Positions 7,614-53,732 of a stretch of DNA of 64,000 bases are shown here, piece after piece. Under the pieces are notes generated by a model. The model saw nothing but the letters and a program-made list of their open reading frames with translations. It did not search any database and was not told the origin of the DNA. The translations under genes and the position numbers were made by a program. The stretch spans positions 1-64,000 of IMG/VR virus record IMGVR_UViG_3300023238_000006; one strand, given 5' to 3'. This stretch comes from a virus (Duplodnaviria > Heunggongvirae > Uroviricota > Caudoviricetes). Each line of letters begins with the position of its first letter. The first letter of the stretch is position 1.

Positions 7614-7856
7614 TCAGACATCTAACACCTGAGTATGCTGGATGTAGGCATCATAGTTAAACACTTTGTATGTTACCATCATAGTAAAGTCCCCCTCATG
7701 GAGTACATCCATAGATACTTTAATATCCTTCATATGACGTATAGGTTTTGGTATAACACAAGGAGTAAAGAGTGGATGGGAGTTGCACACCATCCCTACT
7801 CTATGATCTCCACTGCAGTACTCACATATAGCTTTGTCTAGTAAAGGCAATATCAT
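7614..7856 (-). CDS. Hypothetical Cys/His-rich small protein (80 aa), possibly zinc-binding.
   Basis: CEYCSGDH...CNSH spacing. Weak. Confidence 0.3.
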   Translation of the reverse strand: MILPLLDKAICEYCSGDHRVGMVCNSHPLFTPCVIPKPIRHMKDIKVSMDVLHEGDFTMMVTYKVFNYDAYIQHTQVLDV

Positions 7857-8002
7857 TAGTTACCCCTCTCCATACTATACTTACCCCCATCAGTAATAGT
7901 AGAACATTTAGGGCATATCATAACCCCAAACATCTTAGGTATAGGTAGAACCTTCTCCCCACACCCAGGGCATTCTACTAGTTTATCTAGTACACTACTC
8001 AT
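7856..8002 (-). CDS. Small zinc-ribbon protein (48 aa, MSSVLDKLVECPGCGEKV...CPKCSTITDG...).
   Basis: Manual reverse-complement translation. Two CxxC pairs. Start and stop are coupled to neighbouring genes (TAATG overlap). Confidence 0.4.
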   Translation of the reverse strand: MSSVLDKLVECPGCGEKVLPIPKMFGVMICPKCSTITDGGKYSMERGN

Positions 8003-8005
8003 TGG

Positions 8006-10516: not shown

Positions 10517-10522
10517 ACATTA

Positions 10523-10550
10523 GTAACCTTCGGGTTGCTCTTGTTTTTTT
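10523..10550 (+). terminator. Rho-independent terminator (GTAACC-TTCG-GGTTGC stem-loop plus T-run).
   Basis: gtaaccttcgggttgctcttgttttttt. Same hairpin core as the terminator at 15616. Confidence 0.6.
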
Positions 10551-11005: not shown

Positions 11006-11072
11006 AAGGGGTATAACTACCTTTTACAAAATAGCATAAAGGCAAAGCCTTTGTGTATATAAGGAGATAACA

Positions 11073-11204
11073 ATGGAAATAATAACAATGGTCTTGGTGC
11101 TGATGTTCTGGCCTATAATAGTGCCAATAGTAGCACTAGTATACACAACAGTCGTATGGCGCCTAGTAAGCCTAGTAGGGCTTGTGATAGGTGGCAACAA
11201 GTGA
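11073..11204 (+). CDS. Small hydrophobic peptide (43 aa).
   Basis: ataaggagataacaATG. Entirely hydrophobic core. Confidence 0.35.
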   Translation: MEIITMVLVLMFWPIIVPIVALVYTTVVWRLVSLVGLVIGGNK

Positions 11205-11243
11205 AGAAGGTGGTAGACTCTATAGAAGAGGCGCTAGAGCCTT

Positions 11244-11264
11244 GTAAACGACTCACTATATATA
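11244..11264 (+). promoter_or_regulatory. T7-class phage promoter-like sequence gTAAACGACTCACTATAtat. 13 of 13 match the T7 consensus -13..-1 ACGACTCACTATA.
   Basis: Direct comparison with TAATACGACTCACTATAG. Chance occurrence in 64 kb is improbable. The phage encodes a T7-like RNAP. Confidence 0.5.
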
Positions 11265-11536
11265 TTCTAGGAGTAGTTGTGGGAATCCTCACACAAGTAC
11301 TAGCTACTATCTCGTAAGACCTTCTAGGAGACCCGTGACGGGTCGCTACTTCAATAAGGTACTGGAGTAGCCTTTAGGGGAGATCGTGGCGTAGAGAGGC
11401 TCGTAGGTACTGTACACGCCTCTCACAGCCCTAACAAACACTCCACCTACAACAACCACTAAACAACCTCTGTACATACTAAGCTACACTTAAGCCTATG
11501 TACACTACAATACCAAATATGACATAAAGGGTAACT

Positions 11537-12007: not shown

Positions 12008-12423
12008 CACCAGTATACACGTAACGCCGTGTGGACTAGTATCGTCTCTGTCTTACAGAAACTCTAGTAATATAGAAGCCTCGCAAAAACACCACCTAAA
12101 ACCCTTGCAAACATAAGGTACAGCGAGGTTTAGTCGTGTACAATAATAAAAGTGGCATAAAGGCACTTCAGCCCAGCTCTTACTACGAGCCTTCAACAAT
12201 TACATAAATACCATAAAGGCATACTATGAACTACCAACAAGAAGACATTAATAGGAGAAGTCTCAGATAGAGGCTTGCCACTTCTAGCATTAGAACTAGA
12301 GACTAAATATAATCTACCTGCAGAGGTAATTATAGAAAGTGACATAAAGGCCTTCCACCTTTTATTTAAGTATAGAATCAGACCTAATATCCACTACTCT
12401 CCACTAAGCCTAAAGGACTCACA

Positions 12424-12600
12424 ATGACAAGATTAGAATCAGCAATCCAAAGTAGAAAAGAAACAGCAATGGTACAAGCATACCTAAGAACCTCATTCGT
12501 AACGCAATGTAAACCAGTAGGAACTCCTCACCAAGTGGTAAGAGCAACTCCATTCAGCCTCAGACTAGCTACCTTAGAAGTATCAGCGGAGAAGAGATAA
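12424..12600 (+). CDS. Small hypothetical protein (58 aa).
   Basis: Manual translation. RBS taaaggactcacaATG. Confidence 0.35.
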   Translation: MTRLESAIQSRKETAMVQAYLRTSFVTQCKPVGTPHQVVRATPFSLRLATLEVSAEKR

Positions 12601-12731
12601 TGACTACTCGTACTCGTACTAGCCGTAGCTACCGTCCACTTCACTCACCTCGTACACCTAAGCCTCTACATTCTCTTCGAGAATTAATGTGTAATGGTTC
12701 CATAACAATCCTTAGAAACTCAAAAGCATAA
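12600..12731 (+). CDS. Small basic Arg/Thr/Ser/Pro-rich peptide (43 aa, MTTRTRTSRSYRPLHSPRTPKPL...).
   Basis: Manual translation. ATAATG start overlap. It overlaps a nucleotide motif that is also found non-coding at 10690. Confidence 0.25.
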   Translation: MTTRTRTSRSYRPLHSPRTPKPLHSLRELMCNGSITILRNSKA

Positions 12732-12809
12732 TAAATCTATTATAACTAGCCTCAAGCGTACCCTGAAAAGGTGCTAACCAAACTCACCACTAAACCAAGG
12801 AATCAATAA

Positions 12810-13439
12810 ATGAACATCACTAACTTAAGCACAACAGCAACAACTACTCTAGAAGCATTAGTAGCCGGTATCGAAGCAAAAGCATCAGCAAAAGCATTAG
12901 ACCGTAGGATAGCAATCCTTTCCACAGAGAGTGGTGCTAATAAGTTAATGCGTCAGAAAGACGGTAGAACTCTTGGTGCTATCACAACTCGTATTGCAGA
13001 CATCACAGAGAAGCCAGTATTCTCAGGCTTCACATACAATGGTAATGTTGAAACAATAGTAGCCATAGCTTCAGCACTTCAGTATATGAAAGGAGACCTT
13101 AGAGAATCTATCTCTGAAACTATCTGGGCTACATTCGACGGAGATACTCGTACAGACATCATCAATGCATATGGTCGCCTACCGTACTTAGCAGATGAGC
13201 TAGCTATAGAAATCAATGGAGTTGATGTAATCGTAGACCCTAACGCTCGTCCTCTAGCTAAAGCAGGTATTCAGCCTAATGTAGCTGAGTTAGAGATGTT
13301 AGTAAACACTATTGCTATGAACCTAAACCTATTAGGGGAATACAACTGTACTCAAAGAGAAGCGGACAAGAGTTGGGCAGATGCTAATCGCAAGATTAAC
13401 AAAGCAGAAATCCTCGACTCATACAAAGCTTCACTATAG
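12810..13439 (+). CDS. Hypothetical protein (209 aa) immediately upstream of the RNAP gene. Whether it substitutes for the N-terminal domain the RNAP lacks is speculative.
   Basis: ORF track. Adjacency to an RNAP that is truncated at its N-terminus. No detectable motif. Confidence 0.45.
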   Translation: MNITNLSTTATTTLEALVAGIEAKASAKALDRRIAILSTESGANKLMRQKDGRTLGAITTRIADITEKPVFSGFTYNGNVETIVAIASALQYMKGDLRESISETIWATFDGDTRTDIINAYGRLPYLADELAIEINGVDVIVDPNARPLAKAGIQPNVAELEMLVNTIAMNLNLLGEYNCTQREADKSWADANRKINKAEILDSYKASL

Positions 13440-13495
13440 CCATACGGTTAAGACTTAGGTCTTAGCCTCCTACCAAAACCCCAAGGAGATAATAA

Positions 13496-15259
13496 ATGAA
13501 TTTAGAATTAGAACTACCCGAGATAGTAGACTACCTCGACATAAACAACGATACAACAGTTGAGATGTTAACAGCACTCTTCCACCGTATAACTTACAAC
13601 CTAGGGGCTACCAGCCTCACTTACTGGTTAGATAAGTTCACAGACCACAAGCAAGGCAATCGTATGATACTACAGCTATCACTACGAGGAGTAATAGTAA
13701 CTACAGTCAAACACAACTATGCAGAAATAGAAATGTCTAAGCAATGGTTACTACAGAACAACACTCAAGAAGAGTTAGATGCTCTTATCCTTAGCAATAA
13801 GCTTAATAAATATCTACCAATCAGAGCTAACCTTAACAAGCCTCTAGTATCAGACCAAGTTAAGCTATCATCTGGTATCCAAGCTACTGGCCTATCTCGC
13901 CCATCATTCGCTAAAGCTGGCCATAACATATTCACATACGATACAGCTATGATGAGCCTCTACAGAGACGAGATAGTTAAGTTCTCAATCAAAGCTATGG
14001 AGAAGATGGAAGCTAAGCTCCACCGCTCTCTAAGACTACCTGAAGCACACGACTATGGCTCTATCATAGAACAAGCTATAGACCTCATCATAGCTAACTC
14101 TCACCACGAGTATATGCTAGGTAGCCTAGTCCTAGATAGTAGAGGTAGAGCTATATACCAATGCCTTAAAACTATCTTCAATCCAATTTCTAACAAGATG
14201 GCTAGAGCTCTGGTAAAGGCTCCAGGAGAGTTAGTAACAGCAGATAGTGCTAAGGGTGCTTTCCTATTCATAGCTGAAATCTACTCAGGCTTCAACCCTA
14301 ATATCCCAGCTAAGATTGAGCAGGGTATAGACTGCTACGCAGACCGCCTATACCACGAAATAGACGCAGACACTGAAGAAGGCTTAGACTCCTTATTCGA
14401 AAACATATGGTTAGAACGGCTATACGCAGATATGGAAGCTTTCGAAGCCAATCCATACCACCTAGTAACAACTCCACTAGAAGTGGACTTCTCAGCATCA
14501 AACCTAACTATCATAGGACTACTACTAGGGCACACAGACTATGTAGATGACTCTAGATATATGTGGGACATAGATGGCCTTAGCAAGAACCACGTTAAGT
14601 TTGCACAGACTCCATATGTATTTGGTAGCTCAGCCTCAATAAAATCACTATGGGCTAAGAACAAGCTAGACTTCACAGCAACTCAAGTTGACATTATGAG
14701 AACAGCTCAACTAAGAGGTAAGTTTGCTATTGCCAATGAGTTCAAGGACATCATAATCAACCATTGCCATCCAACAGCAGTAATGGAGTTCCATATAGCT
14801 GATGAGAAGTTCAGGGTAGAGTGTAATAAGACTAAGAACATAGGCGAAACTACTAAAAGCTATATAGTCTTAGACTCAATTAGCAACAAGTTCAACCTAA
14901 TCCAGCATACTAACACTCACAAGACACCAGACCTTAAGCAGTTTAGACGCTACCCAGTGACTGGTATCATCCACAATCGCGATAGCTGGTTACTAGACTT
15001 CGTATTCTCAGCACTACCTTGGGGATTACCTATCCACGATGCGGGCATAGTAACTTGGTCAGGGGCAACAACTATGCGAAACAAAGCTGTAGAAGGTATG
15101 ACAATCATACATTCTACTAGACAAGAGACTGTATACAACTACCTTAAATCTATAAACTTAGACACAGCTGGCTTAACAAAGTATGCAAAGCTACTAGGTA
15201 AAGTTGCAGACTTAAACAAAGACAAGACAATGACTATCTCACCGTACTTACTAAAATAG
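13496..15259 (+). CDS. Compact T7-like single-subunit DNA-dependent RNA polymerase (587 aa).
   Basis: Motifs are aligned to T7 RNAP by eye. LVLDSRGRAIY matches DWRGRVY. EVDFSASNLTI matches motif A (AFDGSCSGIQ). TPYVFGSSASI matches motif B (TLAYGS). GLPIHDAGIV matches motif C (HDSFG). The protein is about 200-300 aa shorter at the N-terminus than T7 RNAP. Confidence 0.75.
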   Translation: MNLELELPEIVDYLDINNDTTVEMLTALFHRITYNLGATSLTYWLDKFTDHKQGNRMILQLSLRGVIVTTVKHNYAEIEMSKQWLLQNNTQEELDALILSNKLNKYLPIRANLNKPLVSDQVKLSSGIQATGLSRPSFAKAGHNIFTYDTAMMSLYRDEIVKFSIKAMEKMEAKLHRSLRLPEAHDYGSIIEQAIDLIIANSHHEYMLGSLVLDSRGRAIYQCLKTIFNPISNKMARALVKAPGELVTADSAKGAFLFIAEIYSGFNPNIPAKIEQGIDCYADRLYHEIDADTEEGLDSLFENIWLERLYADMEAFEANPYHLVTTPLEVDFSASNLTIIGLLLGHTDYVDDSRYMWDIDGLSKNHVKFAQTPYVFGSSASIKSLWAKNKLDFTATQVDIMRTAQLRGKFAIANEFKDIIINHCHPTAVMEFHIADEKFRVECNKTKNIGETTKSYIVLDSISNKFNLIQHTNTHKTPDLKQFRRYPVTGIIHNRDSWLLDFVFSALPWGLPIHDAGIVTWSGATTMRNKAVEGMTIIHSTRQETVYNYLKSINLDTAGLTKYAKLLGKVADLNKDKTMTISPYLLK

Positions 15260-15286: not shown

Positions 15287-15619
15287 ATGAATCAAATATT
15301 TATCAACCTAACATCACATACACTAAACGAAGTAACAACAGGGATGGCTCTACCAGTAAGTGGCATAGTAGCTAGAGTTAAAAGTAGTACAACTACTCAT
15401 AGAGTTCACAATGGTATCCCTATCTACATCTCTGATTTCGGAGAAATACAAGGACTACCAGAGCCAATAGAAGGTACTATATATGTAGTAAGTGCATTAG
15501 CACTAAATGCTATACCGCCACACCGTACAGATGTGGTTGCCCCAGGTAATCTACAGCGGGACCAAGATGGTAAGCCTATAGGGTGTGTAGGATTTAGAAC
15601 AAGTGACCGCACTAAGTAA
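15287..15619 (+). CDS. Hypothetical protein (110 aa).
   Basis: ORF track. RBS aaaggattaaacaATG. Confidence 0.5.
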   Translation: MNQIFINLTSHTLNEVTTGMALPVSGIVARVKSSTTTHRVHNGIPIYISDFGEIQGLPEPIEGTIYVVSALALNAIPPHRTDVVAPGNLQRDQDGKPIGCVGFRTSDRTK

Positions 15620-15645
15620 CCTTCGGGTTACCAGTCTTTTTTTTT
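15616..15645 (+). terminator. Rho-independent terminator (GTAACC-TTCG-GGTTAC plus T9).
   Basis: gtaaccttcgggttaccagtcttttttttt. Confidence 0.7.
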
Positions 15646-20899: not shown

Positions 20900-21825
20900 A
20901 TCTACTACCACTGGGCACTTAGGTGCCTACTATAGTAAATTAAAAGGAAACCTATGGAATATCTAGTAACCCTACATGGAGAAACTCTATGTACACTAAC
21001 AGCAAACAGTTTAGAGCAGGCAGAGGCTATTGCCTTTAGAATGTATGGTTTAGAAGTTGACATAAAGGAAAAGTAATGAAGAGTCTATCAAGACTTAAGT
21101 GTGATGCTTGGTTCTATAGGAATTAGGGTAGTATATTTATAGCTATAGTTGTGTTTGGTGGAGCATTGATTGGTTACCTATTTGGTAACTGTAGATGAGC
21201 TTATTACTCGTAGTTCTATGAGTAGTTGCATTATGTATATTATTAAAAGGATAAGTGATGAAGTATTTTGTAATAGTAACAGAGGAAAATGAAGAGCCTT
21301 GTGAAACTAGAAGTGATGCTGGTATGTTCTCGTATCTTGAACCTTACTTTGTAAATACTACTCATTAGAAGAGGCTTTATTGCCCGTGAATACATCTTAT
21401 TGGAGGGACAATTATACCCCTCTTATGATAGTAACAGTATATGATTACAACTAAAGGAAAAGAGATGAAAGTATATTACATAGGTAAAATGATTGGTGAA
21501 TGCGATGAAAATGACTCTAAATGGTCAATAGAAGGTATCTTTGATTCTAAACAATTAGCATTTTCAAAACATGGTAGAAGATGAATTTTGTATTGAGTTA
21601 GAAATGAATGTTAAATTGCCTTCAGAATTAATAAAACCTCCTGAAGGAACATACTGGTGAAAAATTTATAACAAAATTATAAACTATGATGGTGTAGAAG
21701 TAAAGGATTAAATTAGAACTTAAGTATTAGTATAAACTTATATATAAAGGTTTATTCTTAAGCTTTTTTTATTTGTTACCTAGTATATAATACTATATAA
21801 CAAATAAAAAAAACGGAGAACAAAG
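20900..21825. other. AT-rich (about 30% GC) segment poor in ORFs. It contains a palindromic AT stretch (TTATTTGTTAC...ATAACAAATAA) just upstream of 21826.
   Basis: Composition by eye. Only tiny ORFs. The inverted repeat was read directly. Confidence 0.4.
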
Positions 21826-22365
21826 ATGAATAAAGTAGAATTACAAGAAGCACTAAGACTTCATAAGTTATGGTTAAATGATAAACCTGGTGGAATTAGA
21901 GCTGGTTTAAGTAAGGCTAATTTAAGTAATGCTAATTTAAGTTATACTGTTTTAAGAGGTGCTGATTTAAGAGGTACTAATTTAAGTAATGTTGATTTAA
22001 GTTATACTGATTTAAGAGGTGCTGATTTAAGTAAGGCTAATTTAAGAGGTACTAATTTAAGTTCTACTGATTTAAGAGGTGCTAATTTAAGTTATACTGA
22101 TTTAAGAGGTACTAATTTAAGTAATGTTGATTTAAGATGTGCCGTAGGAAACAACAAAGAAATAAAATCGCTTCAAATAGGTACTTATTTAATCTCTTAT
22201 ACAGCAGTTGTTTTAAATATTGGTTGTGAGTCTCACTCTATCAAAAAGTGGGCTTGTTTCAGTGATGAAAGAATAGCTAGTATGGATGAAGAGGCTTTAG
22301 AGTTTTGGAACTTAAACAAACATATAATTTTAGAGTTATGTAACAGAGGAGAAGGAAATGACTAA
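21826..22365 (+). CDS. Pentapeptide-repeat protein (179 aa) with A(D/N)LSx repeats and a C-terminal domain of about 70 aa. Very AT-rich codon usage.
   Basis: ANLSNANLSYTVLRGADLRGTNLSNVDLSYTDLRGADLSKANLRGTNLSSTDLRGANLSYTDLRGTNLSNVDL. Nucleotide-level internal repeats. Confidence 0.7.
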   Translation: MNKVELQEALRLHKLWLNDKPGGIRAGLSKANLSNANLSYTVLRGADLRGTNLSNVDLSYTDLRGADLSKANLRGTNLSSTDLRGANLSYTDLRGTNLSNVDLRCAVGNNKEIKSLQIGTYLISYTAVVLNIGCESHSIKKWACFSDERIASMDEEALEFWNLNKHIILELCNRGEGND

Positions 22366-32323: not shown

Positions 32324-32324
32324 A

Positions 32325-32489
32325 ATGAAATACTCTCAAATGATAGCAATACACACCACAGCACTACTACTGTTAGGGGTAGCACTGGCTATATACCCAA
32401 TACTATTACCTATAGTCCTACTAGCTATGTGTGTAGTCCTAGTTGTACAAGCTGGAGTTGAGCTATACCACTGGCTGACTAATGTCTAG
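32325..32489 (+). CDS. Small membrane protein (54 aa).
   Basis: Manual translation. TAAAATG follows the DNAP-exo stop. Confidence 0.35.
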   Translation: MKYSQMIAIHTTALLLLGVALAIYPILLPIVLLAMCVVLVVQAGVELYHWLTNV

Positions 32490-32589
32490 CATAGGTGTAG
32501 CTGAGGCTATACTAACTATGGGGATATTAATAATATTAATAACGTTCATAGGCACATACTGTGCTGTTGAACACTCTAAGAAAAACTAA
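32482..32589 (+). CDS. Small membrane peptide (35 aa).
   Basis: Manual translation. Confidence 0.25.
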   Translation: MSSIGVAEAILTMGILIILITFIGTYCAVEHSKKN

Positions 32590-32864
32590 ACTACCTTCCT
32601 CCTGGCATTGCTAATACCATATAAGCCCAATGGCGTCTATTGGTCTTCCGCTGACGTACACTCGCTAAGACTAACTCCATTCATCTTCATTGGAGTATAA
32701 CATTAAGATGACCGAGAAGGGCACTATCATACTAACATCCGCAGCTCGGTATATAAAAATAAGAGCAAGGGATGTATGGCGGGACTAATACACCTTGCTT
32801 AATACAAACGTAATACAGAAAGATACTGTATAACAGACCCAGAGGCCGTTGAGGTAACGCTGCG

Positions 32865-32954
32865 GTAGGTGTAAAGTAGTCCGGTAACACTTGGTGTATC
32901 ATTTACCTGCAGAGGTATGCATCTAGATCGCTGGTTCAAATACAGCCACCTACC
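32865..32954 (+). tRNA. tRNA-like element with a 7-bp acceptor GTAGGTG/CACCTAC, a D-arm AAGT..ACTT and a T-arm GCTGG-TTCAAAT-ACAGC. The 37-nt middle region (anticodon/variable) could not be folded by hand.
   Basis: Manual base-pair check. Class II or intron-containing tRNA, or a tRNA-like decoy. Confidence 0.25.
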
Positions 32955-34348
32955 ATGAGAGAAGACTCAAACAACATTCCCGAACTTACAGTTCTAATCT
33001 ACCTTCATCGCGGATAGAAATTAGATAACCCTACAGGCTCCCGGCGGGCTGTGTAGGTTGAAACAAGCCATACTACTTAGGCTAAACTAGTAGCAGAGCA
33101 TAACTGCAATATCCGTCTGGTCCCCGTAAGGGACTCTATAAACTCCTAGTGAGCATACACACTAAGACAGGAATACAAGAGACTGCCTGACTACGCAGTG
33201 TATTGCGTAATACACCCAGTCAGTTGTGTGTTCTCTAGGGTTTTATACCCAAAGTTTCTATCAGCTTGATGATGGCGTATATCCTACGACACAAGGATCA
33301 ACACCGTGCCTCTTATCAAGGCTAGTACGCTGGTTGTATACGTATGAAGAAGTAGCTTGATACCTACATTTGAACCAAAACCGGTAACTGCTCCCGTTAA
33401 GGGCTCTGAGACGAGAAGGCTCTCGCCTTCTCTCCACAGCCTAGCAGCTAAGTTCCTAAGAGCATATAGATAACTGTTCCATAGATGTAAGCTGATGCCC
33501 AACGCTATGACTAAGTAACCCTAGAGCCCAACGAGATTAATTATCTCACCACACATTTGGATAGCACGTCGAGAGTCACTATGCCGGTCCATTGTAGATA
33601 CTCAATGCTATATGTTCTTAGGAGCTTATCCCTCCTGAAAAAAGCTAGTAACTTAATTACTCTTCTTAAACGTCAATGCACTATTATGCCCCAGATGTGA
33701 ACAGGGAATGCCTGGCAACGTATATAGGGAATGTTGTGAAGTGTCTTGCGTATTAGCACCATAGGTAGCACTTGGAGTATAGGTACCTAGCGACCTGCAC
33801 TCGAAAATTATATCAATGCGCTAAGCCCTTGTTGATACCTTGGGAGATGTCTACACTCGATGTGAGGGGACGCTAAATACAAGATCATCAGACCACTAGT
33901 TACCCATCACTAGTATAAATAAGATGGGCAATATGTAAACGTATAAAGTAGGGTTGCCTACAAATGTGGCTGTCCTCGAGGCTTGTAGACCACATCCTAT
34001 TAAGGTGCAGTTCAACTCTGATTCGTTTACACCAAAAATAAGTACCAGTCATCTAACTAGTCAAGAAGCTCCATTAAAGGAGCTAATGTGAGTGCAACTC
34101 TCACCTGGTACACCAGCTCCGTATAGAGTATAAACGATTCAGTCAAGAGTAAAGACTATAACTTATCCCCTCGGGATTGAAGCTTCAAAAAGTACGTCAC
34201 TGTGGAACAGGACTTAAAAGAAACAGTAGGTTCCTCACGTACCTTAAACGTGGGTGCATATGCTGCAGCCTGGTTGGCACGAGAGGTTCGATTCCTTTAA
34301 CAGCACTAGATATATCGAAAGATCCTCATATCTTAAATGGGGACGTAA

Positions 34349-34424
34349 GTACCATTAGCTTAATCGGTAAAAAGCGTCGACTATTAAAACATAAGATACT
34401 GGTTTGAATCCAGTATGGTACACA
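34349..34424 (+). tRNA. tRNA-like element with acceptor GTACCAT/ATGGTAC, U8, a D-arm GCTT-AATCGGTAAA-AAGC containing GG, and a T-arm ACTGG-TTTGAAT-CCAGT. The anticodon stem does not pair.
   Basis: Manual folding. Probable degenerate or pseudo-tRNA. Confidence 0.2.
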
Positions 34425-35190
34425 AAACAATGGGGCGAGCATTACAGAGGCAGGATGAATTTGCAACTTCATCAGTGAGTTTGACTCTCACCGCTCCACC
34501 ATGATACCACCTATGAGCATAAGTTATAAGCCAGGAATAAAACCGCCTGCAGTACCGAACAGTAAGGTACAGTGTTACCGGTCCACTTATGTTCTTAGGT
34601 GTTATCACCAGTCCCCAGCTAAGACTTAAAATAAATGCACTCCAAGCCATTATGAGTATAAACCATTGGCAGTACCCGCCGATAGCAGGGGCAGTTTAAG
34701 TGCTAACCAAGTCTCCGGAAGCTCATCTAGGTCAAGACTTTAAACTGACCCTAAACGAAGCAGGTTTTACCGTTGTACCTTAAACAATGGCTACGACTAT
34801 CCCTGTGGGTACATACAGGAAGACAGGATAAGTATACACTGCCTGAAGCGTGTAGTTAGTTGCGCACATCTAACCCAGTGCTGTATGTATCCTCAGGGGT
34901 CGTCTAGCTAAAGAATGACCGCTAATCATAAACTATAGCAGCGTGGCAAACAGAGCTGAAAGACTCAATACCAACCAGAGGTACCGGACGCTATAAAAAT
35001 TCGGGGTAGACGGAGTTAACCATAGGTGTACAACTACTGGTGCAAAAGCAATAAACTTATGAAGGTTATATACTCTCCTTTGGAGATCAAGTATGTAGCC
35101 TTTAGTAAGTTTATACAATACGTAACATAGTACAGATTAAAGCCATAAAAGGTACTTAATCTGTATTATAATAAACATTAAAGGAACCAG

Positions 35191-36062: not shown

Positions 36063-36603
36063 TACAACAATAGAATGGCAATCCCCTGAGACAACACCAG
36101 CAGGTGATCCGTTCCTAACAGTAAAGAAAGCTAGAGGTTACTACTACTACGCAGAGCGTGGGGGAGTAGACTCTATAGCCTTCGTACTGCTGGATAAAAC
36201 AGCTAACAAGATTGGTCTTATACTAGAGAGTAAACCTCCTATGGATGAAATGGCTTCAATTGAAGTTGACTACATCACTGCATTTGGGGGGTCTATAGAC
36301 TCACCAGACTCTAAGACTGATATAGTTATAACTGAGGTATTAGAGGAAGCTGGTTACGTAGTAACAGCTGATAATGTAACTGAAGTTGGATCAACTGTGG
36401 TATCGACCCAAATGAGTCAAACACTTTACGCCTACACAGTAGACGTTACAGGTATACCTAAGACTGCAGAGACTGAGTACGAGTCTCAAGGTAAAGGTGA
36501 TAGAACACAGTGGATGACATTCACTGAAGCATTAGCAAACTCTGACTGGAAGTCTATATTTATTATGACTATGTTAGGGCACAAGCTAGATGGAGCTAAA
36601 TAA
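36055..36603 (+). CDS. Nudix hydrolase (ADP-ribose pyrophosphatase-like, 182 aa).
   Basis: Nudix-box-like GGSIDSPDSKTDIVITEVLEEAGY. 8-nt overlap with the NMNAT gene. In other phages NMNAT and Nudix are fused as NatV. Confidence 0.6.
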   Translation: MTDTTIEWQSPETTPAGDPFLTVKKARGYYYYAERGGVDSIAFVLLDKTANKIGLILESKPPMDEMASIEVDYITAFGGSIDSPDSKTDIVITEVLEEAGYVVTADNVTEVGSTVVSTQMSQTLYAYTVDVTGIPKTAETEYESQGKGDRTQWMTFTEALANSDWKSIFIMTMLGHKLDGAK

Positions 36604-37997
36604 TGCAATCAATACTAAACCTAGCTGATTCCTACAAATTCTCACATTCAAGCCAGTACCCAAAGAATATGGTAAGTCAATATGACTACATGGAATCACG
36701 TGGGGGCACTTACCCTGCAACAGTATTCGTAGGACTTCAGTACTACTTATTCAAGTACCTAACAGTACCTGTGACTGAGTTAGAAGTAAAACTAACAGCG
36801 GCTAAAGCTGCTCGTCACGGAGTACCTTTCGATCTAAATGGTTGGATGCATATTGTAAACAACTGTGATGGCTTAATTCCCGTAGAAATTAAAGCAGTAC
36901 CAGAAGGCAGCCTAATACCTACCAAGATGGTACTAGTAACTATAGAATCAACAGACACAGCTGTTCCATGGATAGCAGGATTCTTAGAGACTATCTTAAT
37001 GAAGATCTGGTACCCAACTACAATAGCTACTAAATCTTACTACACTCGTAAGATGCTAGAGAAGTACGGAGATCCTGAATGGGCTAAGTTCGCTTACCAC
37101 AACTTCGGAGACCGTGGCGCTACCTCAGTAGAATCTGCAGCTATAGGAGGCTTTGCCCACTACACCCAATTCATGGGAACTGATAACTTCAACTCCCTAG
37201 ACATTGCAGAGAACTACTACGCTACAACAGCCATGCCAGCATACTCAGTATACGCTACCGAGCACTCTAGCACTACCTCACACGGTCGTGAAGGAGAAGA
37301 AGAGTTTGTCTATACTCAGCTATTAGAAAACCCTGGTAAGGCCATCATGAGCTTCGTAGCTGATTCATACGACGTGTATGAGTTTACTAAGTTCTGTACA
37401 GCCCCTAACTCTCGTATTAGAGAACTAATTGAGTCTAGACCTAGCCAAAAGTTAGTCCTCCGCCCTGACTCTGGTAACCCTATTGAAGTGATGACACAGA
37501 TGTTAGCTATAGTTAAAGCCAATAATTGGGGCTATACTGAGACTCCTACAGGATTACTATTCAATCAACTAGGTATCTTATGGGGTGATGGAATCACTCC
37601 TGAAGTAATAGAAGAAATCTTAGCTATGGTACCACGTGTGGGCTATGCAGCTGGGAACTTCATATTTGGAAGTGGTGGTGATCTCATGCAGAACATCACT
37701 AGAGACACTCAGAGGTTTGCTATTAAATGTAGTAGTATCACTGTAGCACATGATGAGTTTATAGGTAATACCTCGTACGAAGAGGTAGATGTCTACAAAG
37801 ACCCTATTACTGACCCTGGTAAAGCCTCTAAACGTGGTAAGGTAACTACTTACATTAGAGAAGATGGTACTTACTTCGTAGACCTGGTAACAAATAAAAC
37901 ACCTGATGCTAAGAATGCTTTAACAACTGTATTCTTAAATGGTACGGTAACTAAAGAGTATACACTAGAAGAGATACGTAACAACTCAAAGGACTAA
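36603..37997 (+). CDS. nadV: Nicotinamide phosphoribosyltransferase (NAMPT/NadV, 464 aa).
   Basis: N-terminal LNLADSYKFSHSSQYP (the DSYK motif of NAMPT/NAPRT). Length is typical. Co-operonic with NMNAT. Confidence 0.75.
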   Translation: MQSILNLADSYKFSHSSQYPKNMVSQYDYMESRGGTYPATVFVGLQYYLFKYLTVPVTELEVKLTAAKAARHGVPFDLNGWMHIVNNCDGLIPVEIKAVPEGSLIPTKMVLVTIESTDTAVPWIAGFLETILMKIWYPTTIATKSYYTRKMLEKYGDPEWAKFAYHNFGDRGATSVESAAIGGFAHYTQFMGTDNFNSLDIAENYYATTAMPAYSVYATEHSSTTSHGREGEEEFVYTQLLENPGKAIMSFVADSYDVYEFTKFCTAPNSRIRELIESRPSQKLVLRPDSGNPIEVMTQMLAIVKANNWGYTETPTGLLFNQLGILWGDGITPEVIEEILAMVPRVGYAAGNFIFGSGGDLMQNITRDTQRFAIKCSSITVAHDEFIGNTSYEEVDVYKDPITDPGKASKRGKVTTYIREDGTYFVDLVTNKTPDAKNALTTVFLNGTVTKEYTLEEIRNNSKD

Positions 37998-41453: not shown

Positions 41454-42899
41454 ATGACAAAACAAGAATTCTTAATTGAACTAAAAGCAATCGTGATAAC
41501 AGGCATGGTTAAAGAGGTTAACATTATGTTAGGGGCTAGCAAGGCTGCTTTCCTATCAACATCACTCCTCCTTAAACTTCAACCAACATTTGTAGCTATA
41601 GAATCTCCCTACGCTAGACTACCTAAAGCTTCAACTATCGAAGACTTAGATGAAATCTTCAAAGCTTACATACCTATTGATGATCCTTCATTACTAGTAT
41701 TCGAAATTGCATACGATAGTAAGAAGACTATTAAACGTGCACTGAAACTTGCTGAAAAACACACAGCTTACTTCGCATTCCACTACATCAAACATCTACA
41801 TGCAACTCTTGCACAAGTTAACACTACTGCATACGTTCAAGCTATGATAAAACAAGTAGCTGGTAAAGAGCACCCATTCCTCCTAGCATCTGCAGTAATT
41901 GACAGATCTATGAGTGATATGGCTCTTAAAACACTAGCAGCAGCTGGTGTTAACACTAGGCCATACGAGAATGTTATTGAGCATATGGAGACTACTAATA
42001 TCGCTGAAGAGTTAGAGCTACTAGCTTCAGCTATGGAGTCTAAAGTTATCACTAAGATCCCTGGCTATATTCGTAAATTACGCATAAAGCCAATTGATAA
42101 CATCGCAGAGCTATTAGAAGTAGTGGCTAACCACGGCCAAGGTCAAGGCGAGTTCGGGTACCAGCAAGGTCAAAGAACTGCTAGTGTAATAGTAGACCTG
42201 TCACAAGCTCTTAACCACACCCTCTCATCATCTTGTAAAGGTACTGCAGTTGGTGACCTTATGGCTACTAGCTTTGAAGCTAATCACATCGATGCCTTAT
42301 GGTTCGATGACTTAACTAAAACTGTATTATCATCAGTAATTGAAAAGTCTAACGAAGGTTATGCGTCATGGGGTAATCTGTCTAAGACTAAACGCCACTT
42401 ATACCATAGCCCAGTTAGAATCAATACTGACCACAAGTTACAACTATATGTAACAATAGACCAAAGTGGGTCTGTATCTACTGGAGACCTTCAGAAGATA
42501 CTATCAGTATTTGAACAATACTCACACCTAATATCTCAAGCAGTAGTTATGCATCACACAGCTAGCGTTATACAGCAGTATGAGCTAGATGATAGCTATG
42601 GAGAGTTAATAGATCACCCAGAGTTTAAAGCGGCCTTTGCTTGTCGCCACGGTGATGGTGGGACATCTCACGGAGATTGTGTTAAGCGTATAGCTAAACA
42701 TATCACTAAGAACAACATCGACCCTGAGAGAGCTATTTGGCTCAGCTTCAGCGATGGCTATAGCGACTTAGAAGACGTATGCATGACTGAACATAGTATT
42801 ATGGACAAGTTAGAAAAGTTCTTCATCAGAGATAGTAGAGGTAGAAATATTATCCTACATACAATCCCTGGTAAGAACCACAATATAGTAACGCCTTAG
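41454..42899 (+). CDS. von Willebrand factor A (VWA) domain protein, CobT-like (481 aa).
   Basis: MIDAS motif YVTIDQSGSVS (DxSxS) in the C-terminal half. Immediately downstream of the AAA+ gene. Confidence 0.6.
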   Translation: MTKQEFLIELKAIVITGMVKEVNIMLGASKAAFLSTSLLLKLQPTFVAIESPYARLPKASTIEDLDEIFKAYIPIDDPSLLVFEIAYDSKKTIKRALKLAEKHTAYFAFHYIKHLHATLAQVNTTAYVQAMIKQVAGKEHPFLLASAVIDRSMSDMALKTLAAAGVNTRPYENVIEHMETTNIAEELELLASAMESKVITKIPGYIRKLRIKPIDNIAELLEVVANHGQGQGEFGYQQGQRTASVIVDLSQALNHTLSSSCKGTAVGDLMATSFEANHIDALWFDDLTKTVLSSVIEKSNEGYASWGNLSKTKRHLYHSPVRINTDHKLQLYVTIDQSGSVSTGDLQKILSVFEQYSHLISQAVVMHHTASVIQQYELDDSYGELIDHPEFKAAFACRHGDGGTSHGDCVKRIAKHITKNNIDPERAIWLSFSDGYSDLEDVCMTEHSIMDKLEKFFIRDSRGRNIILHTIPGKNHNIVTP

Positions 42900-52646: not shown

Positions 52647-53732
52647 ATGGGGGGAGATGTTATGGAGAATTTGAAGATAAACTCTGAGTACCTATTAAAC
52701 TTTCTACACCTCCATTACCAAGAAGTATATGATGCACTGGGAACTACTGAGCATGGGTATTTAGGCAAAGAGCCTAACTCCCACCACTTAGAAGGAACAA
52801 TCCTAACCCATACTAAAATGGTTATGGAAGTTGCTGAAACTACTTACCCTGGTAACATAAATATCCTAGTGACAGCAATGTTACATGATATAGGCAAACC
52901 TTATGTATATGAAGACATCGAGAAGTCTCACCGCAGACGCTTTGCATGTCATGAAGCGCTCAGCACATTTATGGCTAAGCCTATACTACAATATCTAGCT
53001 AACGTTATAGATATTGACCAAGAGTTAATACTAAAGGTAATAGCTCTTCATGGAAGTCTTTACAACTACTTTGAAGATAGCAGGATACCTGCTAATAATC
53101 ATCAGAAGATTGCTGATAAGTTTGGTAATGATCTAACTCTTTTAGAAGCAGTTGCTAACTTTTACTACTGTGACCACACAGGCCGTACTCAAGAGAGCCC
53201 TGGAGACATATCCGGTATCATGAAGGACTTTAAAGCTATAGCTACTTTATTAGTAGAGCCTAACGAACCTATATCTCCAGCTATTACAGTCCTCGTAGGG
53301 CCTCCTAGAGTCGGTAAAAGCACTTGGGTAACCAATCATGCCTTTGATACTACGATTGTCTCTAGAGACGCTCTGGTGGACTCTCACGGGGTAGGTTCTA
53401 CCTACTCTGAAAGATGGAAGTCTTTAAGAAGGGATACTCAAACGTTAATAGACAAAGAGCTGCTAAGCATATTCAACTCGGCTATTAAGGCCAAGAGGGA
53501 TGTAGTAGTAGATATGACTAACATGAGTAAAAAGAGCCGTAAAAAGTGGCTAACAAATGCTAGGGGCTATTACAAGAAAGCTATAGTTTTCATAGAGCCT
53601 AGGGAAGTGTTACTCGCTAGGAACACTCCTGATAAGTACATACCTGAGTACGTAATAGACAACATGATTAAAAGCTTTGTAATGCCTATGTACGACGAAG
53701 TGGACTACATAGAATTATATAAAGGACGGTAA
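52647..53732 (+). CDS. HD-Pnk-type RNA/DNA end-healing enzyme (361 aa) with an N-terminal HD phosphoesterase and a C-terminal P-loop 5'-OH polynucleotide kinase. An alternative start at 52662 has a better SD.
   Basis: HD signature NSHHLEG...LHDIGK. Walker A VLVGPPRVGKST. Adjacent to an Rnl1-type RNA ligase. Confidence 0.65.
   Translation: MGGDVMENLKINSEYLLNFLHLHYQEVYDALGTTEHGYLGKEPNSHHLEGTILTHTKMVMEVAETTYPGNINILVTAMLHDIGKPYVYEDIEKSHRRRFACHEALSTFMAKPILQYLANVIDIDQELILKVIALHGSLYNYFEDSRIPANNHQKIADKFGNDLTLLEAVANFYYCDHTGRTQESPGDISGIMKDFKAIATLLVEPNEPISPAITVLVGPPRVGKSTWVTNHAFDTTIVSRDALVDSHGVGSTYSERWKSLRRDTQTLIDKELLSIFNSAIKAKRDVVVDMTNMSKKSRKKWLTNARGYYKKAIVFIEPREVLLARNTPDKYIPEYVIDNMIKSFVMPMYDEVDYIELYKGR

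Follow-up and report, generated by a model that had tools for sequence, protein, structure and literature searches.

On the combined evidence of profile comparisons and a structural model, the 587-aa open reading frame (ORF) described here is a real, extremely diverged single-subunit RNA polymerase (RNAP) of the T7/N4-RNAPII type, and it is probably the single-chain counterpart of the heterodimeric RNAPII of phage N4, with the 209-aa gene just upstream as its candidate cofactor. This reading is built on the homology and fold of the polymerase, the conservation of its catalytic residues, the N4-like genome context, and the synteny and co-inheritance of the partner gene. The DNA analysed, referred to below as the window, is a stretch of 64,000 nucleotides of a phage genome. 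The polymerase ORF is uninterrupted over its 587 codons and constitutes a single gene; it lies 56 nt downstream of the 209-aa ORF on the same (plus) strand, and AAGGA-type ribosome-binding sites precede both. The elements of this region are the following:

Positions 12810 to 13439, plus strand: ORF with ATG start for a 209-aa acidic protein (pI 4.9, 22.7 kDa), a conserved RNAP partner gene and candidate RNAP cofactor.
Positions 13446 to 13467, plus strand: stable stem-loop GGUUAAGAC-UUAG-GUCUUAGCC, with no T-run after it, in the 56-nt spacer from partner to RNAP.
Positions 13496 to 15259, plus strand: ORF with ATG start for a single-chain, highly diverged single-subunit RNAP, an N4 RNAPII-like mini-RNAP (587 aa, 66.6 kDa).
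Positions 15287 to 15619, plus strand: 110-aa ORF directly downstream of the RNAP, before the terminator-like site.
Positions 15616 to 15645, plus strand: terminator-like stem-loop GTAACC-TTCG-GGTTAC followed by a T-run.

The fold of the 587-aa protein places it among the single-subunit RNAPs. Its AlphaFold2 model (pLDDT 94.1, pTM 0.88) was compared with the PDB by Foldseek, and the best 50 matches were all single-subunit RNAPs (T7 RNAP, POLRMT and Rpo41), with E values from 1.1e-11, for T7 RNAP chain 1cez_A, to 2e-9, a probability of 1.00 and query-normalised TM-scores of 0.48-0.58, at sequence identities of only 10-14% to the matched enzymes (12-14% to T7 RNAP). The protein is invisible to conventional searches: it had no match in Pfam, NCBIfam or PDB sequence searches, with neither RPOL_N nor, at E <= 1, RNA_pol (PF00940) being recovered, and none of 40 family members matched PF00940 at E <= 0.1. 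In this it differs from N4 gp16, which scored 52.7 bits against PF00940 as a control, T7 RNAP scoring 366 bits. More sensitive comparisons pointed to N4 RNAPII, which was both the closest sequence-profile match in the PDB and the top hhalign partner. The best PDB match of the family profile by hmmsearch was the gp16 chain 6dt7_B (E = 0.02), with motifs A, B and C aligned, and hhalign to gp16 (residues 53-368) gave a probability of 75% (E 2.6e-5, 232 columns), again with the three motifs in register. The alignment to T7 RNAP, also run by hhalign, covered T7 residues 419-573 (E 1.5e-4). On the other hand, no alignment of the N-terminal part with the gp15 family could be obtained: the first 250 residues gave a probability of 1% (E 0.05) in a profile-profile comparison with a 25-sequence gp15 alignment, and only around DxxGR, while a single-sequence comparison with gp15 gave 0.1%.

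The catalytic and structural elements were located as follows:

Positions 14135 to 14149, plus strand: T/DxxGR motif, codons for D214-S-R-G-R218 (DSRGR), aligned by hhalign to T7 DWRGR (D421-R425).
Positions 14474 to 14500, plus strand: motif A, P327-LEVDFSA-S335, with catalytic D331, aligned to T7 and N4 gp16.
Positions 14585 to 14629, plus strand: motif B and the end of the O-helix, K364...K368-FAQTPYV-F376-G-S378, aligned to N4 gp16 'CKQAIMTALYGS'.
Positions 14831 to 14929, plus strand: long, mildly basic (pI 9.4) beta-hairpin of residues 446-478, between motifs B and C.
Positions 15032 to 15043, plus strand: motif C, I513-H-D515-A516, with the second catalytic Asp, aligned to N4 gp16 'VHDC'.

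In an alignment of 40 family sequences these residues are close to invariant. Within DxxGR, R216 and R218 are found in 40/40 sequences and D214 and G217 in 39/40; E329, D331 and S335 of motif A, whose counterparts are 'PLAFDGSCS' (D537) in T7 and 'PVALDATSS' in N4 gp16 by profile and hhalign alignment, are invariant, as is K368 of motif B (40/40). In motif C, H514 is kept in 33 of the 40, A516 in 38, and D515 also in 38, the other two having gaps there. The C-terminal end ...LLK-COOH, reminiscent of the FAFA foot of T7 RNAP, is kept in 38/40 homologues. The motifs are thus far beyond a chance motif match. DSSP analysis of the model delimits the hairpin strands as residues 446-460 and 465-478, and the hairpin appears to occupy the place of the T7/N4 specificity loop, as judged from the order of the elements rather than from residue-level superposition. 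Taken together, fold and catalytic motifs back membership of the T7 superfamily, from which RNA synthesis activity is predicted.

These results bear out much of the initial annotation, which had called the ORF a T7-like RNAP with all palm and fingers motifs present, had put DxRGR near residue 215 as against about 421 in T7, and had noted the 209-aa ORF 56 nt upstream, a spacing that proved exact. Its view that most of the T7 N-terminal domain is absent is likewise sustained, because only 213 residues precede DxxGR, compared with 420 in T7 RNAP, which leaves no room for most of that domain. The motif starts at residue 214 here, at 421 (DWRGR) in T7 RNAP and at 236 (DKRGR) in N4 gp15. The enzyme was also rightly ranked among the smallest T7-family RNAPs, being shorter at 587 aa than N4 RNAPII at 673 aa, the enzyme so far described as the smallest of them. 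Its family comprises 75 clusters, 59 of them full-length (569-668 aa).

As judged from its sequence relationships, the phage is an N4-related, AD45-like marine podophage of ~110 kb with a split virion RNAP. Its only relatives in the phage databases are the Alteromonas phages AD45-P1 to P4, which encode an N4 gp50-like virion RNAP, a gp43-like primase and a MoxR ATPase/vWA pair like gp24/25. About 7.5 kb beyond the right end of the window, on the same strand-switch layout, lies a minus-strand gene for a 1379-aa protein, the C-terminus of which matches a region of the AD45 virion RNAP (25% identity, E 3e-24); the virion RNAP of the phage is made as two polypeptides. No RNAPII-like genes were found in the AD45 phages when they were described (PMC3821669).

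The resemblance to N4 RNAPII (PDB 6DT7/6DT8/6DTA) extends beyond profile similarity. Both are minimal T7-like RNAPs with a strongly reduced N-terminal region and a truncated thumb, both come from the early region of N4-related phages which carry a virion RNAP as well, and some relatives of the 587-aa enzyme are encoded by two genes, divided at the counterpart of the gp15|gp16 junction. By analogy with N4 RNAPII, the enzyme would be expected to be factor-dependent (PMC4496689). The differences are also clear. The protein is a single chain of 587 aa and not a heterodimer of 269 + 404 = 673 aa, which makes it 86 aa shorter, and every inter-motif segment except the C-terminal tail is shorter (motif A to B 37 aa vs 63, B to C 147 aa vs ~209, DxxGR at 214 vs 236). 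It has another conserved neighbour, the 209-aa partner, in place of gp1 or gp2 homologues; the partner-family HMM, run on gp1, gp2 and the initial 12 kb of the N4 genome, found no match. T7 RNAP (883 aa) shares the overall fold, T/DxxGR and motifs A/B/C, and a long beta-hairpin at the specificity-loop place, but it is ~300 aa longer and works factor-independently on a 23-bp promoter present in many copies, a kind of repeated promoter not found here; the 587-aa enzyme also matches neither Pfam RPOL_N nor RNA_pol.

The partner protein has 18 close homologues, and an exhaustive profile search retrieved 27 representatives of its family, of which 26 are plausible and one is a TPR-repeat false positive; most are 197-233 aa long, with a maximum of 267 aa among the 26. 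In each of the 7 loci whose sequence extends upstream of the RNAP, an ORF of 204-223 aa precedes it, directly adjoining it in 6 of them, while in AD45-P1 two small ORFs intervene. Six of these seven ORFs demonstrably belong to one family (HMM scores of 51-282 bits), the extended partner HMM giving 130 bits for locus L013, 104 for L014, 61 for L009 and 51 for AD45-P1 gp041; the ORF of L007 reaches only a marginal 7 bits. The ORFs all encode acidic proteins (pI 4.7-5.4), and the synteny holds down to ~30% RNAP identity. The divergences of partner and RNAP correlate (r = 0.93 over 21 locus pairs), a co-divergence that is expected of any two vertically inherited neighbouring genes. The AlphaFold model of the 209-aa protein (pLDDT 88) is helical; Foldseek gave a best E of 0.45 against the PDB, with no RNAP among the 50 matches listed, and a best E of 0.56 against BFVD, which is not significant. 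The protein has no Pfam, PHROG or NCBIfam family, and no nucleic-acid-binding signature, DNA-binding fold or RNAP-binding fold was detected in it.

The presence of a gene for a conserved acidic protein just ahead of the RNAP gene at all 7 loci suggests a lineage-specific cofactor, one analogous to N4 gp2 or LUZ7 Drc. N4 RNAPII requires gp1 and gp2, LUZ7 RNAPII binds the unrelated Drc, and the cofactors differ between N4-like clades (PMC4496689, PMC7145618). It has been reported that gp2 and Drc, which are mutually non-homologous, direct a mini-RNAP, itself blind to promoters, to the melted middle promoters (PMC4496689, PMC7145618). As small, early, lineage-specific proteins encoded near RNAPII genes, gp2 (with gp1) and Drc (gp14) resemble the 209-aa protein (PMC4496689, PMC7145618), which like gp2 is acidic (pI 4.9 vs 5.2; PMC7145618). 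It differs in resembling neither gp1, gp2 nor any PDB entry, Drc included, in sequence or fold, in being larger (209 aa vs 161 and 99 aa), and in the much more strictly conserved position of its gene just upstream of the RNAP. It is synteny, co-inheritance, charge and analogy that point to the cofactor role. The earlier linking of the 209-aa ORF to the RNAP is reinforced: its upstream position is conserved to ~30% RNAP identity, and by analogy the protein is more likely a recruiting cofactor than a detached piece of the polymerase.

The 209-aa protein might instead have no connection with the RNAP, being an early protein such as a factor for host takeover or replication whose gene has kept its place through vertical inheritance of a conserved block of early genes; the mini-RNAP would then act unaided or with different factors. 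The missing functional domain, fold match and nucleic-acid-binding signature would fit such a protein, as would the two ORFs that separate partner from RNAP in AD45-P1, the marginal score in L007 and the co-divergence expected for any linked pair. We nevertheless regard this as unlikely, as early gene order in these phages is otherwise very fluid, with the downstream and small upstream ORFs differing between loci, and yet the partner stays upstream of the RNAP to ~30% RNAP identity; in addition, reduced-type enzymes have proved factor-dependent wherever tested (PMC4496689, PMC7145618).

The initial annotation had considered a different connection, namely a split RNAP in which the N-terminal promoter-binding domain is detached as the 209-aa protein and works in trans as a second subunit of the 587-aa core. 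The two genes are adjacent on the same strand with a 56-nt gap, their synteny is kept across the family, 209 + 587 = 796 aa is near the size of a typical T7-like RNAP, and split polymerases have a precedent in N4 gp15/gp16 (PMC4496689) and within this very RNAP family. However, although the PDB holds many T7 RNAP, POLRMT and N4 RNAPII chains, the 209-aa model had no match there better than E = 0.45, and none in BFVD either, and hhalign gave probabilities of 0.3% to T7 RNAP 1-421 and 0.7% to the gp15 family; Pfam RPOL_N was not matched either. No partner-RNAP fusion occurs among the 75 RNAP clusters (maximum 668 aa) or the 26 plausible partners (maximum 267 aa), and a structured hairpin, terminator-like in some relatives, lies between the genes. 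Where the family is actually split, the break falls elsewhere, at the thumb/palm boundary: eight clusters of 364-381 aa begin at residues 247-257 of the 587-aa RNAP, and the split phages retain a separate partner, as in AD45, whose RNAP is divided as gp044|gp046 at the N4-equivalent site with gp041 still present. The proposal thus gains no support from sequence or model comparisons and is quite improbable.

The preferred reading, a single-chain N4 RNAPII counterpart with a candidate cofactor, implies an order of events resembling that of N4, in which expression timing, factor dependence, partner interaction and promoter identity are what we infer. By analogy, transcription of the early region, with its operon of the 209-aa gene, hairpin, 587-aa RNAP gene, 110-aa gene and terminator, would fall to the injected virion RNAP, and the mini-RNAP would then transcribe the middle genes (replication and nucleotide metabolism) on the plus strand. 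The enzyme keeps the catalytic palm, the fingers, a truncated thumb preceded by only ~135 residues, the specificity-loop-like hairpin and the conserved C-terminal tail, and it very probably needs help to locate or open promoters, as do N4 RNAPII and the mitochondrial RNAPs. The protein encoded upstream would be the best candidate for a dedicated initiation or recruitment cofactor, analogous and not homologous to gp2/Drc. The mitochondrial RNAPs acting with Mtf1 or TFB2M, which are among the top structural matches, are likewise single-subunit enzymes needing a separate melting protein; they are, however, of 900-1200 aa with PPR and N-terminal extensions, and their factors have a methyltransferase fold while the 209-aa protein is helical.

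The proposed operon carries further signals in its DNA. The spacer stem-loop (MFE -15.3 kcal/mol, z = -3.35 vs shuffles) has counterparts of different sequence at the same position in L005, L007, L009 and L014, followed by a T-run in L007 and L009, and is possibly a processing, stability or attenuation element. The 110-aa ORF has a homologue of 58% identity in the corresponding position of L005 and matches the C-terminal parts of two PHROGs, and its conservation was not detected in the distant loci. No other terminator-like site was called between the RNAP gene and the hairpin at 15616 to 15645, which probably ends the partner-RNAP-110aa transcription unit and has a near-identical second copy with T-run at 10522-10550 (z = -5.1). 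Sigma-70-like promoters were not enriched at 8.4-15.7 kb (10 found vs 15.4 expected), and no repeated promoter consensus for the 587-aa RNAP was found.

A further feature concerns substrate choice. In every one of the 20 clade-I sequences, the window protein included, F376 (K+8, immediately ahead of GS) aligns with T7 Y639 and N4 gp16 Y145, whereas position 376 is Tyr in 20/20 clade-II sequences; position 374 co-varies perfectly with it, being Tyr in clade I and never Tyr (mostly Met or Leu) in clade II. The AD45 phages belong to clade II, which retains the canonical Tyr. The T7 Y639F substitution loosens rNTP versus dNTP discrimination, and POLRMT, of the same superfamily, primes replication too. 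Because Phe replaces the Y639-equivalent Tyr in the window clade, a further difference from N4 RNAPII, strict rNTP selectivity cannot be assumed. The 587-aa protein might on these grounds be not, or not only, a transcriptase, making DNA or mixed primers as a primase-like or replicative accessory polymerase, and both the fixed Phe of the clade and the T7 and POLRMT precedents would agree with that. We consider this very improbable, however: Y374 occurs only when 376 is Phe, which suggests that the hydroxyl has moved and is not lost; DxxGR, the C-terminal tail and the fold are RNAP-specific, the best 50 structural matches being RNAPs and not Pol I DNA polymerases; the phage carries its own family-A DNA polymerase, and its relative AD45-P1 an N4 gp43-like primase; and clade II, AD45 phages included, keeps Tyr.

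That the mini-RNAP recognises the T7-like site at 11248-11260 as a working promoter, an idea first raised for a near-consensus promoter at 11244, is hardly credible: the exact 13/13 match to the T7 -13 to -1 core ACGACTCACTATA, its sole copy in the window at <=1 mismatch (0.13 expected by chance), and its place on the plus strand in a 531-nt stretch without called genes (11006-11536) upstream of plus-strand genes speak for it, but with up to 3 mismatches there are 31 matches vs 28 expected, 11244-11266 agrees with the full 23-bp consensus at only 15/23 bases (+1 to +6 and -17 to -14 not matching), and even with 3 mismatches allowed the window contains no copy of the full 23-mer. With one copy in the window and none at the loci of any relative, the 13-mer is not a promoter family, of which phage polymerases usually have many copies, and T7 base-specific contacts are implausible because the polymerase is only 12-14% identical to T7 RNAP.

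In conclusion, the size floor of a functional-looking T7-superfamily RNAP drops to 569-590 aa, from 673 aa in N4 RNAPII, and this shows which elements can be spared. The compact family is useful for studies of single-subunit RNAP evolution (fusion versus fission at the thumb/palm boundary) and for compact orthogonal polymerases, and the Tyr-to-Phe swap offers a ready-made natural experiment on substrate selectivity. The syntenic partner is a candidate new class of RNAP recruitment factor beside the non-homologous gp2 and Drc. More speculatively, and rather doubtfully, the pair could form a self-contained and so far unrecognised two-protein transcription system of the smallest natural single-chain T7-superfamily polymerase and a dedicated acidic factor of 22.7 kDa, with a novel fold, for specificity or melting, the polymerase having Y639F-type altered sugar selectivity and use of dNTPs or modified nucleotides. 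Pfam, PHROGs and NCBIfam contain no entry for this RNAP family, so that many contigs from marine phages currently appear to have no polymerase. The family supplies the enzyme that the AD45 description missed, and the three-polymerase strategy of N4 probably reaches this marine group of roughly 100-110 kb phages.

Two open reading frames (ORFs) follow each other on the same strand, separated by 56 nt as the initial annotation had placed them, and each has an ATG start behind an AAGGA-type ribosome-binding site.

12810-13439, + strand: 209-aa ORF, here called the partner
13496-15259, + strand: 587-aa ORF, here called mini-RNAP

The 587-aa protein almost certainly belongs to the T7-like RNA polymerase (RNAP) superfamily, as a genuine member that has diverged very far, and its assignment to the T7 family is borne out by an AlphaFold2 fold, Foldseek matches and conserved catalytic residues. 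In the PDB, the 50 best Foldseek matches to the model (pLDDT 94.1, pTM 0.88, built from a 40-sequence alignment) were T7 RNAP, human POLRMT and yeast Rpo41, all of them single-subunit RNAPs (ssRNAPs), with E values from 1e-11 to 2e-9, probability 1.00 and 10-14% identity. The DxRGR motif was found where it had been placed, as DSRGR at residues 214-218 (in T7 RNAP it is DWRGR, at 421). Motifs A, B and C, originally read by eye, were all located, as PLEVD331FSAS, K368-FAQTPYVF-G377-S378 and I-H514-D515-A, respectively. In the 40-sequence alignment (27-69% identity), R216, R218, D331 and K368 are invariant, and D214, G217, H514 and D515 are nearly so; furthermore, a C-terminal ...LLK-COOH is kept in 38 of the 40 homologues, which recalls the functionally important C-terminus of T7 RNAP. 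Mini-RNAP is a minimal ssRNAP that looks catalytically intact.

Sequence profiles lend weak support to this homology. Using hhalign, mini-RNAP was aligned to residues 419-573 of T7 RNAP, from DxxGR to motif A (E = 1.5e-4), and to gp16 of N4 RNAPII, the gp15 + gp16 heterodimer, with a probability of 75% over 232 columns. The best PDB match of the family HMM was the same gp16 (6DT7 chain B, E = 0.02), in an alignment where motifs A, B and C line up. The Pfam model PF00940 (RNA_pol), which scores 52.7 bits on N4 gp16 and 366 bits on T7 RNAP as controls, matched none of the 40 family members at E <= 0.1. Searches of mini-RNAP against Pfam, NCBIfam and PDB sequences (phmmer) returned no match, and a Megablast search of the locus against phage genomes was likewise negative. 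In PHROGs, the N-terminal, middle and C-terminal thirds match three separate families of 'unknown function', which are pieces of the homologous gene in the AD45 phages described below. Among 5.8 billion proteins searched, homologues form 75 clusters, 59 of them full-length (569-668 aa, median 588), and none of the 75 carries a Pfam domain. No paper on the family was found in a literature search, and its database labels read hypothetical.

The small size of mini-RNAP becomes clear when the motif positions are compared.

Positions of catalytic motifs and total lengths (aa); N4 values refer to gp15 and gp16 concatenated
DxxGR: T7 421; N4 236 (DKRGR in gp15); mini-RNAP 214
Motif A Asp: T7 537; N4 ~343; mini-RNAP 331
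Motif B Lys: T7 631; N4 ~406; mini-RNAP 368
Motif C Asp: T7 812; N4 ~615; mini-RNAP 515
Total length: T7 883; N4 673; mini-RNAP 587

Compared with N4 RNAPII, every segment is shorter except the C-terminal tail. In the model, short helices at residues 150-200 precede the DxxGR hairpin and, judging from their order and spacing, may represent a truncated thumb; only ~135 residues, modelled as four helices and two small beta-hairpins, lie before them. This N-terminus gave no significant match to N4 gp15, either as a single sequence or as a 25-sequence profile. A long, mildly basic beta-hairpin modelled at residues 446-478 would be the counterpart of the T7/N4 specificity loop by the order and spacing of secondary structures, and an 'intercalating hairpin' can be putatively assigned from the same order.

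The partner is the best candidate for a cofactor of mini-RNAP, a tentative assignment based on synteny. Wherever upstream sequence is visible, namely in the window, AD45-P1 and five relatives (L005, which is the closest, L007, L009, L013 and L014), the RNAP gene is preceded by an ORF of 204-223 aa. This ORF is directly adjacent in six of these loci (49-95 nt), and two small ORFs intervene in AD45-P1. An extended-family HMM scored the upstream ORFs at 282, 130, 104, 61 and 51 bits, that of L007 alone being marginal at 7 bits. The remaining neighbours of the RNAP gene are not conserved among the loci. The partner has 18 close homologues, and an exhaustive profile search yielded 27 representatives, of which 26 are plausible (one is a TPR-repeat false positive), most of them 197-233 aa long; an acidic pI of 4.7-5.4 is common to all members. 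Across 21 pairs, partner identity tracks polymerase identity (r = 0.93), which shows co-inheritance rather than interaction.

It had also been proposed that the partner might be a detached N-terminal domain of a split RNAP. This idea gains no support, as neither a fold match, nor profile similarity, nor a fusion was found. The partner model (pLDDT 88, pTM 0.74) consists of helices and a single small hairpin; its best PDB match had E = 0.45, and BFVD likewise gave no significant match, in a Foldseek search that can overlook small helical sub-domains. Annotation of the partner by Pfam, PHROGs, NCBIfam and phmmer searches of the PDB was uninformative, and profile comparisons with T7 RNAP 1-421, the N4 gp15 family, gp1 and gp2 revealed no similarity; the comparison with AD45 gp036 was also negative. 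No partner-polymerase fusion occurs among the RNAP clusters or the partner representatives, and the site at which the family does split lies elsewhere. A frameshift or read-through fusion of the two ORFs was rejected in view of their different frames, the structured spacer and the separate ribosome-binding sites.

Where splitting occurs in the mini-RNAP lineage, the cut falls at the thumb/palm boundary and does not separate an N-terminal domain from the core. The AD45-P1 homologue is distributed over three ORFs, gp044, gp046 and gp048. The gp046/gp048 break, at residue 492/493, is a group I intron with a GIY-YIG/NUMOD endonuclease ORF, and a second group I intron lies right after motif A (residues ~334-337) in a relative's locus, L009; both score above the RF00028 gathering score of 50.

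AD45-P1 locus (L001) 7749-8003 (AD45-P1 record 42340-42594): group I intron, Rfam RF00028, 55.7 bits
L009 7018-7257: group I intron, Rfam RF00028, 88.6 bits
L001 5881-7781: gp044, gp045 and gp046, the region of the two-gene break

The end points of truncated clusters, at residues 334-337 (P0042, P0044, P0070 and P0075) and 492 (P0040), suggest that both positions are recurrent intron insertion hot spots. At the gp044/gp046 break (~residue 247) no intron was detectable, though an undetected one could still be hidden there. Eight independent clusters of 364-381 aa (P0064, P0066-P0069 and P0072-P0074) start exactly at residues 247-257. The break, ~33 residues past DxxGR, is in the same place as the cut between N4 gp15 and gp16. 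Taken together, the breaks and introns indicate that most members of the family, that of the window included, are single-chain enzymes, and that others are N4-style heterodimers or have genes interrupted by introns.

The kinship to N4 extends to the genome. Among 50,697 deposited phage genomes, relatives of mini-RNAP were found only in the Alteromonas podophages vB_AmaP_AD45-P1 to P4, at 31% identity. The AD45 phages are N4-related, with genomes of 100-104 kb, and encode a two-polypeptide virion RNAP like N4 gp50, a primase like N4 gp43, and a MoxR-ATPase/vWA pair resembling N4 gp24/25 (PMC3821669). The + strand layout of the window matches theirs in the AAA ATPase, family-A DNA polymerase and ribonucleotide reductase genes. 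In addition, ~7.5 kb past the right end of the window, further sequence of the same phage (L011) contains, at 21162-22211, a minus-strand gene for a 1379-aa protein, the C-terminus of which is similar to the N4 gp50-like virion RNAP region of AD45-P1 (25% identity, E = 3e-24); the phage therefore probably carries an AD45-type two-polypeptide virion RNAP. Within the early region, the mini-RNAP gene precedes the ATPase/vWA genes, an arrangement shared with gp15 and gp16 in N4. The mini-RNAP family is the RNAPII-like enzyme reported missing from the AD45 phages. It departs from the current definition of N4 RNAPII in that mini-RNAP is not a heterodimer, has no significant gp15 homology, falls below the Pfam threshold and, as far as the partner-family HMM shows, has no gp1/gp2 counterpart, whereas it shares the superfamily ancestry of N4 RNAPII and, by analogy, would work like it.

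The family also varies at the ribose-selecting position. Phe376 of mini-RNAP is aligned with T7 Y639 and N4 gp16 Y145, eight residues after the motif B Lys and directly before Gly-Ser.

14615-14623, + strand: codons of Y374-V375-F376

Position 376 is Phe in all 20 sequences of the window's clade and Tyr in all 20 of the other clade, which includes AD45. Position 374 co-varies perfectly, being Tyr with Phe376 and otherwise never Tyr, mostly Met or Leu. In T7 RNAP, the Y639F substitution weakens discrimination against dNTPs. In the Phe376 clade, the hydroxyl may have been relocated, or sugar selectivity may be altered, giving a natural 'Y639F-like' enzyme.

The transcription of the locus appears to be punctuated by hairpins.

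13446-13467: stable hairpin between the partner and mini-RNAP genes (dG -15.3, z = -3.35)
15616-15645: terminator-like hairpin and T-run after a 110-aa ORF downstream of mini-RNAP

Relatives have a hairpin at the position equivalent to the first, followed in some loci by a T-run, which suggests that partner and mini-RNAP may be expressed differentially. The second appears to end the unit of partner, RNAP and 110-aa ORF. Near-identical terminator-like hairpins, GTAACC-TTCG-GGTT(A/G)C followed by a T-run, occur at 10522-10550 and 15616-15645, and appear to bracket early transcription units.

As for promoters, the near-consensus T7 promoter claimed earlier holds in part: 11248-11260 is identical to T7 positions -13 to -1, but the full 23-mer is absent (none at <=3 mismatches), the -17 to -14 and +1 to +6 flanks have no T7 match, and a function is not supported. 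The 13-mer is unlikely to be a coincidence (0.13 expected by chance at <=1 mismatch); it is single-copy in the 64 kb, its variants at <=3 mismatches are about as common as chance predicts (31 versus 28 expected), and it is missing from all relatives' loci. Since mini-RNAP is 12-14% identical to T7 RNAP, shared base-specific recognition is implausible, and we regard the site as no more than a curiosity. It lies within a 531-nt stretch without gene calls in the source contig.

No long repeated promoter consensus was found in intergenic DNA, where k-mer enrichment gave short motifs only. The octamer CATAAAGG occurs 15 times in the window, five-fold above the 2.9 expected, with 14 copies on the + strand; its sites span 10036-58372, and six lie between 10036 and 12350. 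It is enriched in L005 too, with seven copies on the + strand and none on the - strand, but not in distant relatives. Roughly half of the copies in the window lie 6-7 nt ahead of a start codon, like an extended Shine-Dalgarno sequence; others, in the gene-poor 12008-12809, are not Shine-Dalgarno-like. Given the Shine-Dalgarno placement and the lack of enrichment in distant relatives, we do not claim CATAAAGG as a promoter; it could represent a short promoter of the phage that overlaps with the ribosome-binding site, and would fit the short, AT-rich N4 RNAPII promoter (-7 to +2; PMC4496689). Another candidate, ACAACTAAA (seven copies), was examined and dropped, and the early region shows no enrichment of sigma-70-like promoters. 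One further element recalls in shape the N4 virion-RNAP promoters, which have a 5-7 bp stem and a 3-nt loop (PMC4496689).

11330-11344: hairpin GACCCG-TGA-CGGGTC, perfect 6-bp stem and 3-nt loop

It was rejected as such a promoter, being single-copy, with a stability not significantly above that of shuffled sequences (z = -1.4).

Several other loci were noted. The 800 nt directly upstream of the partner (12008-12809) contain only small ORFs (<=58 aa) and three CATAAAGG copies, with no gene call in the source contig and no Rfam match; Rfam and ARAGORN found nothing in the early region. This stretch may contain promoters, an RNA or some small early genes. A 179-aa ORF at 21826-22365 consists largely of a 15-nt tandem repeat (TRF, 15.7 copies) encoding five-residue units (ANLSN / ADLRG ...), suggestive of a pentapeptide-repeat protein. 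Within 32324-35190 (~2.9 kb) no ORF exceeds 88 aa on either strand; Rfam places a tRNA at 34349-34422 (46.7 bits, gathering score 29), for which ARAGORN made no call. Auxiliary genes occupy 36603-37997, 53732-54913 and 58379-59464: one is for a nicotinamide phosphoribosyltransferase (NAMPT/NAPRTase), and two belong to the RNA-ligase family, the source gene table listing them under Pfam RNA_lig_T4_1 and RNA_ligase. An AAA_33 kinase-like gene adjoins the first ligase, and all of these together may constitute an RNA-repair module.

If N4 and LUZ7 are taken as models, an injected virion RNAP would transcribe the early operon (PMC4496689, PMC7145618), and mini-RNAP would then transcribe the + strand middle genes; such an N4-RNAPII-like role in middle transcription is probable. 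Apparently without most promoter-binding and melting elements, mini-RNAP would rely on a cofactor. N4 gp2 (with gp1) and the LUZ7 cofactor Drc, which are mutually unrelated, recruit the polymerase at melted promoters (PMC4496689, PMC7145618); the partner would fill the same job, binding locally melted promoter DNA and recruiting mini-RNAP. The overall logic, an N4-style mini-RNAP plus a factor, is already known. What the family adds is a lower size limit for the superfamily and a resolution of the absence reported for the AD45 phages. Its fused and heterodimeric forms bear on whether fusion or fission is ancestral, and its locus offers a candidate new cofactor together with what may be a natural substrate-selectivity variant.
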